A stretch of 64,000 nt of DNA, taken from assembly GCA_963726265.1 (NCBI GenBank), contig CAVSBQ010000002.1:416001-480000 (forward strand), read 5' to 3'. Shown here piece after piece: positions 2,013-63,627 of the stretch. The notes under the pieces were generated by a model. It saw only the letters and a list, made by a program, of their open reading frames with translations. It was not told the origin of the DNA and searched no databases. Made by a program: the position numbers and the translations under genes. Every line of letters starts with the position of its first letter. Position 1 is the first letter of the stretch. Origin of the DNA: Candidatus Aenigmatarchaeota archaeon. GTDB taxonomy: Archaea; Aenigmatarchaeota; Aenigmatarchaeia; QMZP01; QMZT01.

Positions 2013-2564
2013 ATGGATTTTGCGCGCGTGCTCAAGACAGGTGCAGCCGCCGGCGCCATCTACGGCGTCCTGCAGGGCATAGTTGCCGTCCTGTCTTTCG
2101 TTTTCTACAGGGAGCAGATAATAGAGGTGATGAGGGCAGCGATACCATCTGGCGTCAACATAGGCATGACCATGGACCAGCTCGCAAACATCAGCATGAT
2201 GACTGCGATACCGGGCTCGGTTATAGGCGGCATAATATCGGGCATAATCGTGAGCTTCATTTTTTCGCTGATGTACGGGGAGCTCATGGGGAAGGATTCG
2301 AGAAGGAAGGGCATTTTCCTGTGCATCCTCCTGACGATAGGCGTAGTGCTCGGCGAACTCGCATACCCCGGAGGCTTCGTGGGCAGCATACTGCTCATCC
2401 AGACAGGATATCTCATGCTCGCCCCGCTCAGCATCGCATTCTTCTTATGCCTCGGCTACCTCACGGGCATTTTCTACGACAGGTTCGAAGACAGCAAACA
2501 TAGGAAAAAGGCAGCGGAATGCAAGCCGGACGAGGAAAAGGAAAAGTCCCACAAGAAAAAATAA
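2013..2564 (+). CDS. Hypothetical multi-pass membrane protein
   Basis: About 4 hydrophobic segments, charged C-terminal tail. Confidence 0.7.
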   Translation: MDFARVLKTGAAAGAIYGVLQGIVAVLSFVFYREQIIEVMRAAIPSGVNIGMTMDQLANISMMTAIPGSVIGGIISGIIVSFIFSLMYGELMGKDSRRKGIFLCILLTIGVVLGELAYPGGFVGSILLIQTGYLMLAPLSIAFFLCLGYLTGIFYDRFEDSKHRKKAAECKPDEEKEKSHKKK

Positions 2565-2580
2565 ACCGGCAATGTAATAA

Positions 2581-2598
2581 AAAAATCAATTTATAAAC
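2581..2598 (+). promoter_or_regulatory. BRE/TATA promoter for the tRNA-iMet/endonuclease locus
   Basis: AAAAATCAATTTATAAA ~25 nt upstream of AGCGGGGTGGAG at 2623. Confidence 0.6.
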
Positions 2599-2622
2599 AC
2601 TCCTCTTTATAAAATATAACAC

Positions 2623-2634
2623 AGCGGGGTGGAG
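2623..2634 (+). repeat. Isolated copy of tRNA-iMet nucleotides 1-12 (AGCGGGGTGGAG), doubling as RBS of the endonuclease
   Basis: Exact match to the spliced 5' end of the tRNA at 3207-3303; its GGAG ends 5 nt before ATG 2640. Confidence 0.85.
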
Positions 2635-2639
2635 AAATA

Positions 2640-3224
2640 ATGACACTGAATAAAATATTTTTAGAAAATTTAACGGAAACTGAAAAGGGATATATTATCG
2701 GTTTGTTTATTGGAGATGGCTATTCTTATTATGATAAAAAACATAGACATTATACAATTGAATTTTATTTGAATTCAGAACGCAACAAGAAAATACAAAA
2801 ACAATTAATTTTCTTATTGGAAAAAATTGGATTGAAGTGTTTTGTTTTAAAGGACAAGAGGTTTAATTGCAATAGAATAAGAGTTTATTCAAAACATCTA
2901 GTTAACTTTTTGAATTCATCTGTGATAAGAAATTGTAAAATCGATTTCGGTATTGGTTATGTATCAGGTATTATAGATTCTGAAGGCTATGTAAATCATG
3001 AAAAAAGTTTTGTTAATGTAGTTAGCACAAACAAAGACGTATTGAAAAATTGCAAGAATATTTTGAAAAAATTTAAAATTGAAGCTAAAATTAGAAATAG
3101 AAAAAAATCTAGCAAAGATAAAAAGAAATCTTATATATTACACATATCATACAAGATTAAAGATATAAAGTTAAATTCGATTAAGATGAACAGCGGGGCA
3201 ATGCTTAGCGGGGATTGTCTTTGA
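2640..3224 (+). CDS. LAGLIDADG homing endonuclease (two-motif)
   Basis: Motifs GYIIGLFIGDGY and GYVSGIIDSEGY; very AT-rich versus flanks; no Hint/extein context. Confidence 0.9.
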   Translation: MTLNKIFLENLTETEKGYIIGLFIGDGYSYYDKKHRHYTIEFYLNSERNKKIQKQLIFLLEKIGLKCFVLKDKRFNCNRIRVYSKHLVNFLNSSVIRNCKIDFGIGYVSGIIDSEGYVNHEKSFVNVVSTNKDVLKNCKNILKKFKIEAKIRNRKKSSKDKKKSYILHISYKIKDIKLNSIKMNSGAMLSGDCL

Positions 3225-3303
3225 GACAACCGCAATGGAGCAGCCTGGAGTGCTCGCTGGGCCCATAACCCAGAGGTCGATGGTTCAAATCCATCCCCCG
3301 CTA
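3207..3303 (+). tRNA. tRNA-iMet(CAT) with 22-nt intron 3214-3235 at position 7/8
   Basis: Spliced AGCGGGG|TGGAGCAGCCTGGAGTGCTCGCTGGGCCCATAACCCAGAGGTCGATGGTTCAAATCCATCCCCCGCTA; A1-U72 and three G-C pairs in the anticodon stem indicate initiator; BHB: GCGG/CCGC helix, bulges GG^A and AA^T. Confidence 0.92.
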
Positions 3304-3335
3304 TAATATTTTATAATATTCCATCAGGTGGTCGT

Positions 3336-3665
3336 CTGAAGTGGCTGTTGCTTCTGATCGCAGGCATTATTCTTGTTTCCGGGTGCGTTCAGACGCAGCA
3401 GGCTTCGCAGGATATTTCCGAGCAGGCGAAAGAGAAATGCATCGGGATATGCATGACTATCAGCTCCGACCTTTCGGGCAGAAGCCCATGCCTTTCCGAC
3501 AACAATTCCGAATGGAACATAAGCGGCTGGGTCTGCGACGTCGCGCATTCGCCGAGGCAGGCGATGGATGACCTGCCAGAGAACCAGTGCAGCGAATTCC
3601 GCGAGGGGAAGGCGAGCCATTTCGTCGAAGTCGATGCGGCCTGCGAATTCATACGCGCCGTATGA
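3336..3665 (+). CDS. Small Cys-rich lipoprotein (start probably CTG 3336 or TTG 3348)
   Basis: KWLLLLIAGIILVSGC lipobox-like; several further Cys; GGTGG RBS before CTG. Confidence 0.7.
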   Translation: MKWLLLLIAGIILVSGCVQTQQASQDISEQAKEKCIGICMTISSDLSGRSPCLSDNNSEWNISGWVCDVAHSPRQAMDDLPENQCSEFREGKASHFVEVDAACEFIRAV

Positions 3666-9129: not shown

Positions 9130-9273
9130 AGCCCCGGGCGAGGATTGAACTCGCGACCTTTCGCTTTCTGGAAGTCGAGTGACCAGCGAAGCGAAGCTAC
9201 TGGTTTTCGCTTAAGCCTTTTGAGTAAAAGGCTATTATACCAAGCGAACGCTCTACCACTGAGCTACCGAGGC
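9130..9273 (-). tRNA. tRNA-Thr(GGT) with 72-nt intron 9166-9237 at 37/38
   Basis: GCCTCGGTAGCTCAGTGGTAGAGCGTTCGCTTGGTA|AGCGAAAGGTCGCGAGTTCAATCCTCGCCCGGGGCT. Confidence 0.93.
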
Positions 9274-30436: not shown

Positions 30437-30576
30437 GGGGTCGTGGTGTAGCTAAGCCCTTTCACGGCAGCTTTCGCTTGCACGAAAGCGCTTGCGGAAA
30501 ACGTGAACGGCTCTGCAATGGTTCAGCATTCAGGCTTCGGGAGCCTGCGACCTGAGTTCGAATCTCAGCGACCCCA
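30437..30576 (+). tRNA. tRNA-Pro(CGG) with 65-nt D-loop intron 30454-30518
   Basis: GGGGTCGTGGTGTAGCT|TGGTTCAGCATTCAGGCTTCGGGAGCCTG...; BHB: GTAG/CTGC, bulges CT^A and AA^T, inner helix AGCC/GGCT. Confidence 0.93.
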
Positions 30577-30618
30577 TAAACCCTTTTTGATTTATATTTT
30601 GCATGGAGAATAATTATT

Positions 30619-59883: not shown

Positions 59884-60034
59884 GGGCCCGTAGCTCAACT
59901 GGCAGAGCACCAGACTCTTAGATGTTATGAGGCGCTTGCGCCCGTGACTGCGTGATATCTGGGGGTCGCGGGTTCGAGTAAGCTCTTTTCAGGAAAGTTC
60001 TTGAAAGAAGTTTTCGAAACCCCCGCCGGGCTCA
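59884..60034 (+). tRNA. tRNA-Lys(CTT) with two introns (59921-59956 at 37/38; ~59979-60020 in the T-loop)
   Basis: GGGCCCGTAGCTCAACTGGCAGAGCACCAGACTCTTA|ATCTGGGGGTCGCGGGTTCGAG|CCCCGCCGGGCTCA. Confidence 0.88.
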
Positions 60035-60086
60035 TTAAATCTTTTTAGAAAAGGGCTTTACCAAAAAAACGAACATACGCCGTGTT

Positions 60087-62338: not shown

Positions 62339-62674
62339 TGTTGTGCCGGGCATAGCCCATTTTCTGTCATCTCACGAGGTTTGATCCTCGAATGAGGCGA
62401 TAGCATTTTTCTAAGTCGTGTCCAAGCAGACCGGCATGCGAAACGCATGCCTTTCGCTTTTTCACTTTCATCCGTGCGGCGCGAACTATTTCACCCTTGC
62501 GCTCCTTCCACGCTTTTCCTTGCGGAAGCATCGCTCCGAAGCGAAGGTCATTTTCTGCGTTTGCGCGCGTTCTCTCGAACGCCGTCTTGCGACAGCACAC
62601 ACGCCATTTATTGGCTGGATGTATGGAACTTGCCTCCCTGCTTGCGCAAGGCGAGCTATCCACCCGGCTCAACA
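62339..62674 (-). ncRNA. rnpB: RNase P RNA
   Basis: P1 GTTGAGCCGGG/CCCGGCACAAC; CR-I GAGGCAAGTTCCAT pairs with CR-V ACAGAAAATGGGCTA; GNRA/UUCG hairpins; TTTAAA box upstream. Confidence 0.9.
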
Positions 62675-62727: not shown

Positions 62728-63627
62728 TCACAACAGCTGCGTGAGCAGGATGCCGGCTATTATGAGAACGATGCCCGCGATCTTCTGCAGCGACGCTTTC
62801 GTATCGAAATCCTCTTTCAGCAGATGCGGGAAATAACGCGTAAGCAAAAAAGCGGAAATGAATATGAATATGACCATCATGTTTCCGGCCGCCTCAACGA
62901 GCGTGACCGGCCCGAGGCTTATGGCAATATAGTTGAATATGAACGCGAGAACTGATGTTATTGCATCCAGAAAGATTAGCATTTTGCCTGTCCGATCGAG
63001 CTTTTTCATGCAAGTTTTCGCATTCTTCCTCACGTCGCGCAGTAAGAGCAAAGATGATATTATCGCTATATTAAGCAGCCATAACAGAATGGAGGCTCCC
63101 CAGTATTCCGTGCCGGACAGAACGAATTTCATTATGACATAGGAAACAGCAATCAAAAAACTTGATGCCGCCACCAGCCAGAAAATCCGTTCGACCTTGA
63201 GCAGCTTTGACATGCTCTTTGATGATATTACCAGCCCGCCCAAGACAATGACCACGAATCCTACGTAGTCAAAAAAACCAAGGACTTCTCCTATGAACAA
63301 AAACGAGATGAAAAGCACGAAAACGGGAATGAACTGGTAAAGAGGCAGGACTCTCGATGCTTCGCCTGCCTGCAAGGCCCTGTAAAAAAGTATTGTGCCC
63401 GCGGTGGAAAACAGCCCGGCCACGAATATCCAGCCTGCAAACTGCGGGCCAGGCATGGAAAATCCCATGAAAAGCGCGATAAAGCATATCGGTATTATGG
63501 ACGTTGCTCTCACAAAAATGGGCAGGACGATAGGCTTGTTCACTTTTTTGTCCACCAGGAACTTGTCCAGCATGTCCGTCGCTGTGTAAGCCAGCGCCGC
63601 CAGAACCACGAAATAAATCCAGTCCAT
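62728..63627 (-). CDS. EamA/DMT family transporter
   Basis: About 10 TMs, internal duplication, ALQAGEASRVLP. Confidence 0.9.
   Translation of the reverse strand: MDWIYFVVLAALAYTATDMLDKFLVDKKVNKPIVLPIFVRATSIIPICFIALFMGFSMPGPQFAGWIFVAGLFSTAGTILFYRALQAGEASRVLPLYQFIPVFVLFISFLFIGEVLGFFDYVGFVVIVLGGLVISSKSMSKLLKVERIFWLVAASSFLIAVSYVIMKFVLSGTEYWGASILLWLLNIAIISSLLLLRDVRKNAKTCMKKLDRTGKMLIFLDAITSVLAFIFNYIAISLGPVTLVEAAGNMMVIFIFISAFLLTRYFPHLLKEDFDTKASLQKIAGIVLIIAGILLTQLL

Follow-up and report, generated by a model that had tools for sequence, protein, structure and literature searches.

Archaeal tRNA introns are marked by a motif called bulge-helix-bulge (BHB), for which the text of a review gives the geometry of a helix of 4 base pairs (bp) flanked by two bulges of 3 nucleotides (nt) on opposite strands (PMC4090602). 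The closest described counterparts of the locus reported here are the non-canonical BHB introns in tRNA genes of ARMAN-2 and the Thermoproteales, which have in common with it a helix of 4 bp and both 3-nt bulges in the available parts of the sources (PMC3239211, PMC3488258, PMC4090602). How archaeal tRNA introns came to lie at odd positions is an open question. Here, we describe an interrupted initiator tRNA (tRNA-iMet) gene in a stretch of 64,000 nt from a Candidatus Aenigmatarchaeota archaeon (assembly GCA_963726265.1, contig CAVSBQ010000002.1, positions 416,001 to 480,000 of the forward strand), hereafter the window. We suggest that this gene probably carries a composite selfish cassette that consists of a LAGLIDADG homing endonuclease gene, a replacement for tRNA nt 1-7 and a BHB mini-intron at position 7/8. 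Together with about 70 relatives, the locus offers a concrete and testable route to odd intron positions, in which a small BHB intron and an extra copy of the tRNA start would accompany a homing endonuclease as it moves, and filled, empty, decayed and endonuclease-free states are all visible in nature.

A preliminary description, made from the letters of the DNA, had proposed a tRNA intron at position 7/8 with an outer BHB helix supplied by the 5' leader. The comparisons reported here support that reading and suggest that it was incomplete: the intron would be the 3' end of a 606-nt cassette, and the stranded nt 1-12 with their promoter, as well as an extra AGCGGGG copy, had been missed. The features of the locus, in order along the window, are:

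2590..2614 (+): putative promoter region of the ancestral tRNA gene, containing TATA-like boxes at 2590-2597 and 2606-2614, from sequence
2623..2634 (+): distal, apparently stranded copy of tRNA nt 1-12, AGCGGGGTGGAG, now in the 5' untranslated region (UTR) of the endonuclease gene
2630..3235 (+): insertion of 606 nt relative to uninterrupted alleles, from DNA contigs and same-genus genomes
2640..3224 (+): LAGLIDADG homing endonuclease gene, 194 aa, single-chain and double-motif, from the open reading frame (ORF), Pfam and a profile match to I-DmoI
3192..3198 (+): middle AGCGGGG copy, possible decoy 5' acceptor strand, from the minimum free energy (MFE) fold and the 7-mer in other loci
3202..3206 (+): predicted leader strand UGCUU of the outer BHB helix, within the 3' end of the endonuclease ORF
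3207..3213 (+): proximal AGCGGGG copy, predicted functional 5' exon (tRNA nt 1-7), the only copy giving a BHB
3214..3235 (+): predicted BHB intron of 22 nt at position 7/8, with an inner hairpin at 3215-3229 followed by the central helix's 3' strand at 3230-3233
3236..3303 (+): 3' exon, tRNA-iMet nt 8-73, with U8 at 3236 and the discriminator A3303, from base-by-base reading, ARAGORN and Rfam

The initiator tRNA gene and its predicted 7/8 intron

The tRNA-iMet body at 3236-3303 lacks its own 5' strand, and AGCGGGG at 3207-3213 stands 22 nt away from it. Joining G3213 to U3236 gives a normal 75-nt initiator-type cloverleaf, the MFE fold of which uses the proximal acceptor strand. Archaeal initiator tRNAs have a CAU anticodon, an A1:U72 pair and three G:C pairs closing the anticodon stem, and all of these are found here. 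The anticodon loop (3261-3267) reads CCCAUAA, with C33 in place of the near-universal U; this loop is common to many relatives, others having CUCAUAA.

The BHB proposed in the preliminary description is present base for base. In the central helix, GCGG (3208-3211) pairs with CCGC (3230-3233) at 4/4 positions between the 3-nt bulges GG^A (3212-3214) and AA^U (3234-3236), such that cleavage would restore AGCGGGG-TGGAG. The inner helix has 6 bp (3215-3220/3224-3229) around the loop 3221-3223. Beyond an A3207 x G3237 mismatch, the outer helix joins leader UGCUU (3202-3206) to the D-stem strand GAGCA (3238-3242) by 5 bp, one of them G.U. Central helix with bulges, flanking helices, a canonical tRNA after the two cuts and a cognate EndA encoded in the genome are the elements of the hBHBh' type of BHB, and the locus shows each of them. 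A motif of this quality (central 4, inner at least 5, outer at least 4 bp) was reached by one of 20,000 shuffles of the 6-nt leader and the 22-nt insert, and by 30 of about 6.0 million position pairs on both strands of the whole window.

The same signature recurs in other genomes. A search pattern that describes the intron alone, and is thus blind to the endonuclease, found it in 14 of 371 genomes of the class, while the reversed control pattern gave no match. The carriers are genome G000 as the sole one in family f1 (0/22 others), 8/47 genomes in f5, 1/14 in f6 and 4/70 in f21. All 14 have a central helix of 4/4 pairs. Inner helices of 3-10 bp were scored in 12 of them, with sequences unrelated between loci; in the other two (G188 and G192), the scorer picked the wrong 5' copy and the inner helix is about 3 bp by eye. 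The helix covaries: its outermost central pair is G-C, G.U or A-U, and in G347 the helix is ACGG/CCGU with the acceptor strands changed to match. An intact endonuclease gene lies beside the 7/8 intron in four of these genomes and a decayed one in a fifth (G032); the remaining nine have neither an ORF nor a distal copy within 60 nt.

Pooling the class genomes with metagenome loci gave 17 distinct 7/8 loci. An outer helix, i.e. at least 3 bp of leader pairing that abuts nt 10, is found in 15 of these against 2/41 loci of other intron classes, and the median energy of the leader/D-arm duplex is -12.3 against -8.2 kcal/mol. As far as sequence can show, this supports the leader/D-stem helix past the A-G mismatch of the preliminary description, and the contrast in leader/D-stem pairing is specific to the 7/8 class. 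By eye, the endonuclease-free 7/8 genes have a TATA-like box about 45 nt upstream, and another segment of their leader, CTCYRGG, can pair with the D-loop CCUGGAG; therefore, a long leader appears to be retained in these genes. Among the 13 loci of the 4/5 class, two leader nt are part of the central helix and the outer helix (2-11 bp) comes wholly from the leader. In leaders of the 10/11 and 15/16 classes (e.g. L100, L103, L094 and L118), the D-loop CCUGGAGU finds a complement in segments that read CCAG, CTCCAGG or GACUCC, and pairing between leader and D-arm may thus be general in the endonuclease cassettes.

Standard tRNA finders handle this gene as the preliminary description had anticipated: ARAGORN calls a truncated gene (3234-3303), and the Rfam tRNA model aligns only its positions 8-63, at 3236-3295 and with 32.2 bits. 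In practical terms, such genes are missed or truncated by tRNA finders, the essential initiator tRNA included. A group I or II self-splicing intron was rejected, the Rfam search at E <= 1 of 2400-3450 finding the truncated tRNA only. Elsewhere in the genome, a tRNA-Pyl with a 496-nt intron called by ARAGORN is a false positive in membrane-protein genes.

An intact initiator gene elsewhere would have undermined the proposal. The 3' exon has one match only in the genome, and the locus is the sole tRNA-Met found by ARAGORN. One could still argue that the interrupted gene is dead and that the cell uses another, unassembled initiator tRNA, since the genome is 88% complete and its tRNA census, in which no elongator tRNA-Met was found, is incomplete. 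Apart from the single match, this idea would have to accommodate an exon that is (nearly) identical to those of the relatives, perfectly complementary acceptor strands, a strict BHB that covaries in 14 genomes and the presence of a cognate broad-specificity EndA. We therefore regard a dead copy as extremely improbable.

The 606-nt insertion and its endonuclease family

In DNA contigs of two metagenome runs, X2 and X3, position 2629 is followed immediately by 3236, such that 606 nt are absent; a repeat of TGGAG, whose five letters fit on either side, lets these boundaries slide by up to +5 nt. In the same-genus genomes G001 and G002, the 5' region of the gene is uninterrupted: promoter and leader are common up to nt 12 and there is no cassette. 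The G+C content is about 25% over roughly 2565-3230 compared to about 53% in the flanks. Run X1 contains a third allele with a D-loop mini-intron and no endonuclease. From the skip in the DNA contigs and the uninterrupted relatives, it follows that the 606 nt are one insertion, which brought in the ORF together with another copy of nt 1-7 and the 22-nt intron. Empty alleles occur in DNA runs and in same-genus genomes; thus, the presence of the insertion is polymorphic while its site, in a conserved gene, is fixed.

The sequence upstream of the insertion points to the original gene start. G004, G001 and G002, all of the same genus, have a nearly identical promoter and leader directly ahead of their own tRNA-iMet, and the distal copy is continuous with the same-genus leader '...ataacacAGCGGGGTGGAG'. 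The first TATA-like box (2590) begins 33 nt ahead of A2623, and G004 (L028) has the same box spacing in nearly identical sequence ahead of its own tRNA +1 (read by eye). On the strength of the match in promoter and leader, 2590-2634 is the ancestral start of the tRNA-iMet gene, and 2590-2614 would have been its promoter.

The insert has a single ORF, which fills 585 of the 606 nt. It is preceded by GGAG, 5 nt before the ATG and inside the 5' UTR formed by the distal copy, and its stop codon TGA (3222-3224) falls in the apical loop of the intron hairpin. The protein matches the Pfam families LAGLIDADG_3 (3e-16) and Hom_end (7.5e-9). Against solved structures, a profile of the family matched I-DmoI at E 5.1e-9 with both motifs aligned, while a single-sequence phmmer search against PDB gave no match. 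D26 and E115, which we take to be the catalytic residues, are invariant in 21 homologues. The middle AGCGGGG copy doubles as the codons for an N-S-G motif of this ORF. AGCGGGG alone is not rare, with 9 matches in the window compared to 9.07 expected; therefore, the argument rests on the 12-mer, its position and homology rather than on the 7-mer.

The layout of the locus is also that proposed for the tRNA-Thr gene of Caldiarchaeum subterraneum, in which, in the available part of the report, a 5' tRNA fragment is followed by an element and a reconstituted tRNA with an extra intron (PMC3293823). By analogy, an integrase-type site-specific recombination into the tRNA gene could have created the arrangement, with the LAGLIDADG gene as a passenger. 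We find this highly improbable: the one ORF of the insert encodes a LAGLIDADG protein rather than a recombinase and leaves no room for another gene, and the same small cassette occurs in dozens of loci without an integrase. Insertion of the pNOB8/SSV type was likewise rejected, as the element contains no recombinase gene.

The locus has three AGCGGGG copies that could serve as 5' exon. With the proximal copy as 5' splice site, the central, inner and outer helices have 4, 6 and 5 bp; with the distal or middle copy they have 4, 0 and 1 bp, and both of these were rejected as leaving the 4-bp central helix only. In all 54 evaluable loci, the 5' strand of the proximal copy and the 3' acceptor strand are complementary at 7/7 positions, through 7 sequence variants. 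A distal copy was found by a loose search in 48 of the 67 loci with upstream sequence (by eye, about 4 of the 48 are false and the search overlooked two genuine ones). This copy is complementary to the 3' strand at 7/7 positions in only 24/48, and in many loci its start has turned into the ATG of the ORF, which explains the 'MRGGE' N-termini of homologues. As the distal copy usually ends at nt 12 irrespective of intron class, the constant junction of the cassette is 12/13. By these comparisons of sequence, the proximal copy is the functional exon and the distal copy a stranded relic that would supply promoter, 5' UTR and the GGAG before the ATG. In two loci, L036 (genome G018) and L037 (G003), distal copies stand in tandem, an intact AGCGGGGTGGAG being followed about 45 nt on by ATGCGG(G/A)GTGGAG as the start of the ORF, which suggests repeated rounds of insertion.

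These observations also bear on whether the whole 606 nt (2630-3235) are one ORF-bearing BHB intron in the style of the I-DmoI rRNA intron, with distal 2623-2629 as the 5' exon and the proximal AGCGGGG as mere intron sequence. Excision of 2630-3235 would restore the tRNA equally well and would match the DNA-level insertion exactly; moreover, the distal copy lies right behind the native promoter and, when the full-length transcript is folded, the MFE structure pairs it with the 3' acceptor strand. However, the distal 5' site offers no inner helix, and across loci it is the proximal copy that is kept complementary while the distal one often becomes an ATG. In addition, nine genomes have the 7/8 intron with neither ORF nor distal copy nearby. 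A single large intron is, therefore, very unlikely, and the locus does not belong with ORF-bearing BHB introns, the working 5' strand lying downstream of nearly the whole ORF.

The cassette is widespread. While a single-protein scan of genome contigs gave one locus only (L031), the endonuclease family was matched in 73 of the 371 genomes, 16 of these matches being strong, with a patchy distribution. We evaluated 93 loci, 16 from genomes (plus L031) and 77 from metagenomes. A tRNA-iMet gene lies directly 3' of the endonuclease in 68 of the 93; the other 25 are mostly the weakest homologues or lie on contigs that end too soon. In one of these 25, L043 (G110), a strong homologue stands tail-to-tail with a multi-intron tRNA-iMet gene on the opposite strand. 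Weaker relatives with 27-34% identity lie either within introns of 16S rRNA or immediately ahead of other tRNA genes (L048, L050-L052 and L056; L049, L054, L057 and L059).

In 65 of the 68 linked tRNA-iMet genes, the first intron lies within about nt 3-20. As assigned by the aligner, the positions are 3/4 (one locus), 4/5 (13), 7/8 (9), 8/9 and 9/10 (3), 10/11 (23), 13/14 and 14/15 (7), 15/16 (7) and 20/21 (2). Of these 65 introns, 50 have a 4/4 central helix and an inner helix of at least 2 bp. Mini-introns of all classes fall within a span of about 20 bp around junction 12/13, and about 20 bp is the size of a LAGLIDADG target. The three loci with an uninterrupted tRNA-iMet (L089, L096 and L113) have a distal copy and an intact ORF, and their tRNA has A7:U66 where the distal copy has G7, which may represent a point-mutation route to immunity.

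Intron position is co-inherited with the endonuclease. In a quick IQ-TREE analysis of 61 endonucleases, the enzyme of the window falls in a clade of eight (96 in the Shimodaira-Hasegawa-like approximate likelihood ratio test, SH-aLRT), all beside 7/8 introns, together with genomes of family f5, whereas the enzyme of the congener G003 groups with that of G018 beside 14/15 introns (SH-aLRT 99). Mapped on this tree, intron class changes 18 times compared to a mean of 35.3 in shuffled data, and none of 200 shuffles was as low. In a sample of 30 relatives anchored on the tRNA, the gene is interrupted by nt 20 in 4/4 endonuclease-bearing and 10/26 endonuclease-free loci. Together with the 7/8 introns that stand without an endonuclease, this indicates that the intron can exist without the endonuclease and is no proof of its action. 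The endonuclease-free interrupted loci fit introns that have outlived their endonuclease, though they do not prove it. Decay of the ORF is seen in G032 (three stops) and in G003 and G184 (one each); among the 16 strongest genome matches, two have an in-frame stop.

The same data can be read such that the endonuclease gene lacks mobility, or has lost it, and has become a domesticated neighbour of tRNA-iMet with a role in, e.g., processing or regulation, the 7/8 intron being old, vertically inherited and unrelated to it. The very widespread linkage, the 7/8 introns without endonuclease in nine of 14 genomes and the intactness of most ORFs all lend themselves to this. Nevertheless, members of the genus either have or lack the cassette at a site that is otherwise orthologous, the 7/8 signature occurs in f1 only in G000, the base composition of the cassette departs from that of its flanks, the enzyme of the window clusters with those of another family rather than with that of the congener, and the decayed copies in G032, G003 and G184 fit the life cycle of a homing endonuclease. 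We consider a domesticated neighbour unlikely and a mobile, selfish cassette the better account of the locus.

Proposed processing of the transcript and further tRNA genes

A splicing motif built from the acceptor stem and the 5' leader predicts an obligatory order of processing and possibly a decoy-strand mechanism. The enzymes for both steps are represented in the genome. Its single EndA (398 aa) matches 4FZ2 over the full length at E 2e-108. 4FZ2 is the epsilon2 EndA of ARMAN-2, which according to the available text of PMC3488258 cuts strict and relaxed BHBs. K161, Y236, H251 and K282, described there as residues that matter in the ARMAN-2 enzyme, are kept. The RNase P RNA gene lies in the window itself, at about 62341-62672 (-), as a full-length match to RF00373 (81.2 bits, E 3e-23); this score is just below the 84-bit cut-off and, consequently, a gathering-threshold scan of the window misses the gene. 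Since nt 2-5 are required for the BHB and for the acceptor stem alike, and since no outer helix can form without the leader, we infer an obligatory order in which EndA would act first and RNase P second. This agrees with the earlier suggestion that the fold excludes the acceptor stem, such that splicing would precede RNase P cleavage, and the folding energies are in line with mutually exclusive structures.

With a leader that starts at 3199 and thus contains no decoy, the cloverleaf with the proximal acceptor stem has -36 to -40 kcal/mol, compared to -26.7 and -28.0 for the BHB conformers. If the middle copy is included (fold of 3190-3306), the 3' acceptor strand is taken by this copy in the MFE structure (-44.7), in which the central and inner helices are preserved. 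In the RNA spliced in silico, the proximal strand forms the acceptor stem (-37.3). For a 686-nt transcript from the native promoter, the MFE structure pairs the distal copy with the 3' acceptor strand and UGCUU/GAGCA forms; the z-score of this full-length fold is only -1.8, and long AU-rich folds are unreliable. Among 65 distinct loci, 25 have an acceptor-like 7-mer 11-37 nt upstream of the true start, compared to 0/260 control windows. This 7-mer tracks lineage-specific acceptor variants and is found in 24 of the 47 loci whose central helix uses acceptor nt but in 1/18 where it does not. The folding models thus suggest that a decoy strand could aid splicing. As 40 of the 65 loci have no such 7-mer, formation of the BHB during transcription, ahead of the 3' strand, would be the simpler general explanation.

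Based on these data, we propose the following model. The cassette would have inserted after tRNA nt 7-12 (relative to uninterrupted alleles), thereby stranding the original promoter and nt 1-12 upstream, where the endonuclease gene would now use them as its promoter, 5' UTR and ribosome-binding site. The tRNA leader would be either the whole endonuclease mRNA or a shorter one that starts from an internal TATA-like box near 3163. In the first step of processing, the 3' acceptor strand would either not yet be transcribed or be held by the upstream AGCGGGG decoy, leaving nt 2-5 to pair with CCGC of the intron; the intron hairpin would provide the inner helix, and leader UGCUU with D-stem GAGCA the outer one. 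In the second step, the epsilon2-type EndA would cleave at G3213/A3214 and A3235/U3236, and a ligase would join G7 to U8. In the third step, the proximal strand would take its place in the acceptor stem and RNase P would trim the leader. At the level of DNA, the endonuclease presumably cleaves uninterrupted tRNA-iMet genes near nt 12/13, upon which repair would copy endonuclease and mini-intron jointly, as in collaborative homing, while mini-intron and truncated distal copy would protect the carrier.

Several observations weigh against this model. Nine of the 14 genomes with the 7/8 intron have no endonuclease at the locus, 10 of the 26 endonuclease-free relatives have 5' introns, and three of the 68 linked loci have an uninterrupted tRNA-iMet, which speaks against the idea of immunity. 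Two of the 17 distinct 7/8 loci lack the outer helix, and the support given by the p-values for the contrast with other classes (Fisher and Mann-Whitney, 5.7e-10 and 0.0013) is overstated owing to the shared descent of the loci. The endonuclease tree is a quick version rather than the result of a careful search. In the absence of the decoy, the BHB conformers are 8-13 kcal/mol less stable than the cloverleaf, the D-stem slightly outcompetes the outer helix energetically, and most loci (40/65) have no acceptor-like 7-mer. Pairing of the distal copy with the 3' acceptor strand in the full-length MFE fold means that thermodynamics leaves this copy a possible role. Finally, splicing at 7/8, the ends of the transcript and the order of the steps are predictions from the sequence, and a search for RNA runs that cover 2560-3320 returned none.

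More broadly, and only tentatively, cassettes of this family might be a general source from which non-canonical tRNA introns arise and spread in DPANN archaea. With each cassette would come a new 5' end whose mini-intron lies inside the target of the cassette's enzyme, the intron would persist after the endonuclease has decayed, and a decoy acceptor strand may fix the order of EndA before RNase P.

Other tRNA-related features were noted in the window. At 30437-30577 (+), a tRNA-Pro(CGG) gene has a D-arm intron of 65-70 nt, two alternative BHB registers and a D-stem with G.U pairs; Rfam aligns positions 10-63 only, and ARAGORN run on the window misses the gene. A 144-nt tRNA gene at 9130-9273 (-) has one long or two introns, with GCGAA occurring twice; the intron mode of ARAGORN gives Ser(GGA) with a 72-nt intron, and the sequence allows other readings. 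At 59884-60035 (+), a tRNA with a CUU anticodon has two introns, in the anticodon loop and the T-loop; it reaches 24.8 bits with Rfam and is not in the ARAGORN list. The background scan also returned a strong BHB-like motif at 63163-63207 (-), with central, inner and outer helices of 4, 6 and 10 bp.

Comparison with known systems

The host is an ARMAN-2-like archaeon of the Micrarchaeota type, and its genome has many disrupted tRNA genes and an EndA of the epsilon2 type, epsilon2 and alpha2beta2 being the broad-specificity forms in the available literature. The intron differs from those of ARMAN-2 and the Thermoproteales in how the BHB is built: the central helix comes from acceptor nt 2-5 and the outer helix from the leader, and BHB and mature fold are mutually exclusive. 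Its position, at the junction of acceptor stem and D-arm, had been called highly atypical in the preliminary description. 7/8 is absent from the positions named in the review text, where 3/4 is the extreme 5' case (PMC4090602), though it may have been catalogued elsewhere.

The endonuclease belongs to the same protein family as I-DmoI and the LAGLIDADG enzymes of rRNA introns, is of similar size and has weaker relatives in 16S rRNA introns. Unlike in the case of I-DmoI, its ORF is placed on the 5' side of the 5' splice site, overlapping the 5' exon and ending in the loop of the intron, and the host gene is a tRNA gene. The arrangement is also comparable to collaborative homing, in which, in the available part of the report, an endonuclease gene lies beside a small ORF-less intron that interrupts a conserved gene at the expected cut site, the two being co-inherited (PMC3984707). 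Both the architecture of the locus and the endonuclease tree show this combination of a free-standing endonuclease and an ORF-less intron inherited together. The two systems differ in that we deal here with an archaeal chromosome, a protein-spliced BHB intron, a tRNA host and a duplicated 12-nt gene start, and in that the target of the enzyme is deduced.

With the tRNA-Thr locus of Caldiarchaeum, the locus has in common an upstream 5' tRNA fragment, an element, a full tRNA with an added intron and heterogeneity in the population. In the part of PMC3293823 available, the Caldiarchaeum element has 1.8 kb, a putative recombinase and an att-type character; the present one has 0.6 kb and a homing endonuclease and recurs across many DPANN lineages. 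Finally, as in split and permuted tRNA genes, one helix of the splicing motif derives from sequence outside the mature tRNA and the 5' end is the place of action of RNase P, insofar as the review text describes these genes (PMC4090602). By contrast, the intron described here is a cis intron, its gene is contiguous, and leader and D-arm would pair within one transcript.

In literature searches that mostly did not include subscription journals, we found no description of endonuclease-linked tRNA-iMet introns. As far as these searches reach, what sets the system apart from those described is a family of LAGLIDADG proteins devoted to the tRNA-iMet 5' end across DPANN-type archaea, a cassette whose removal would take a mini-intron and RNase P rather than excision as one intron, and introns at 4/5 and 7/8 with a BHB predicted to be built from acceptor stem and leader.

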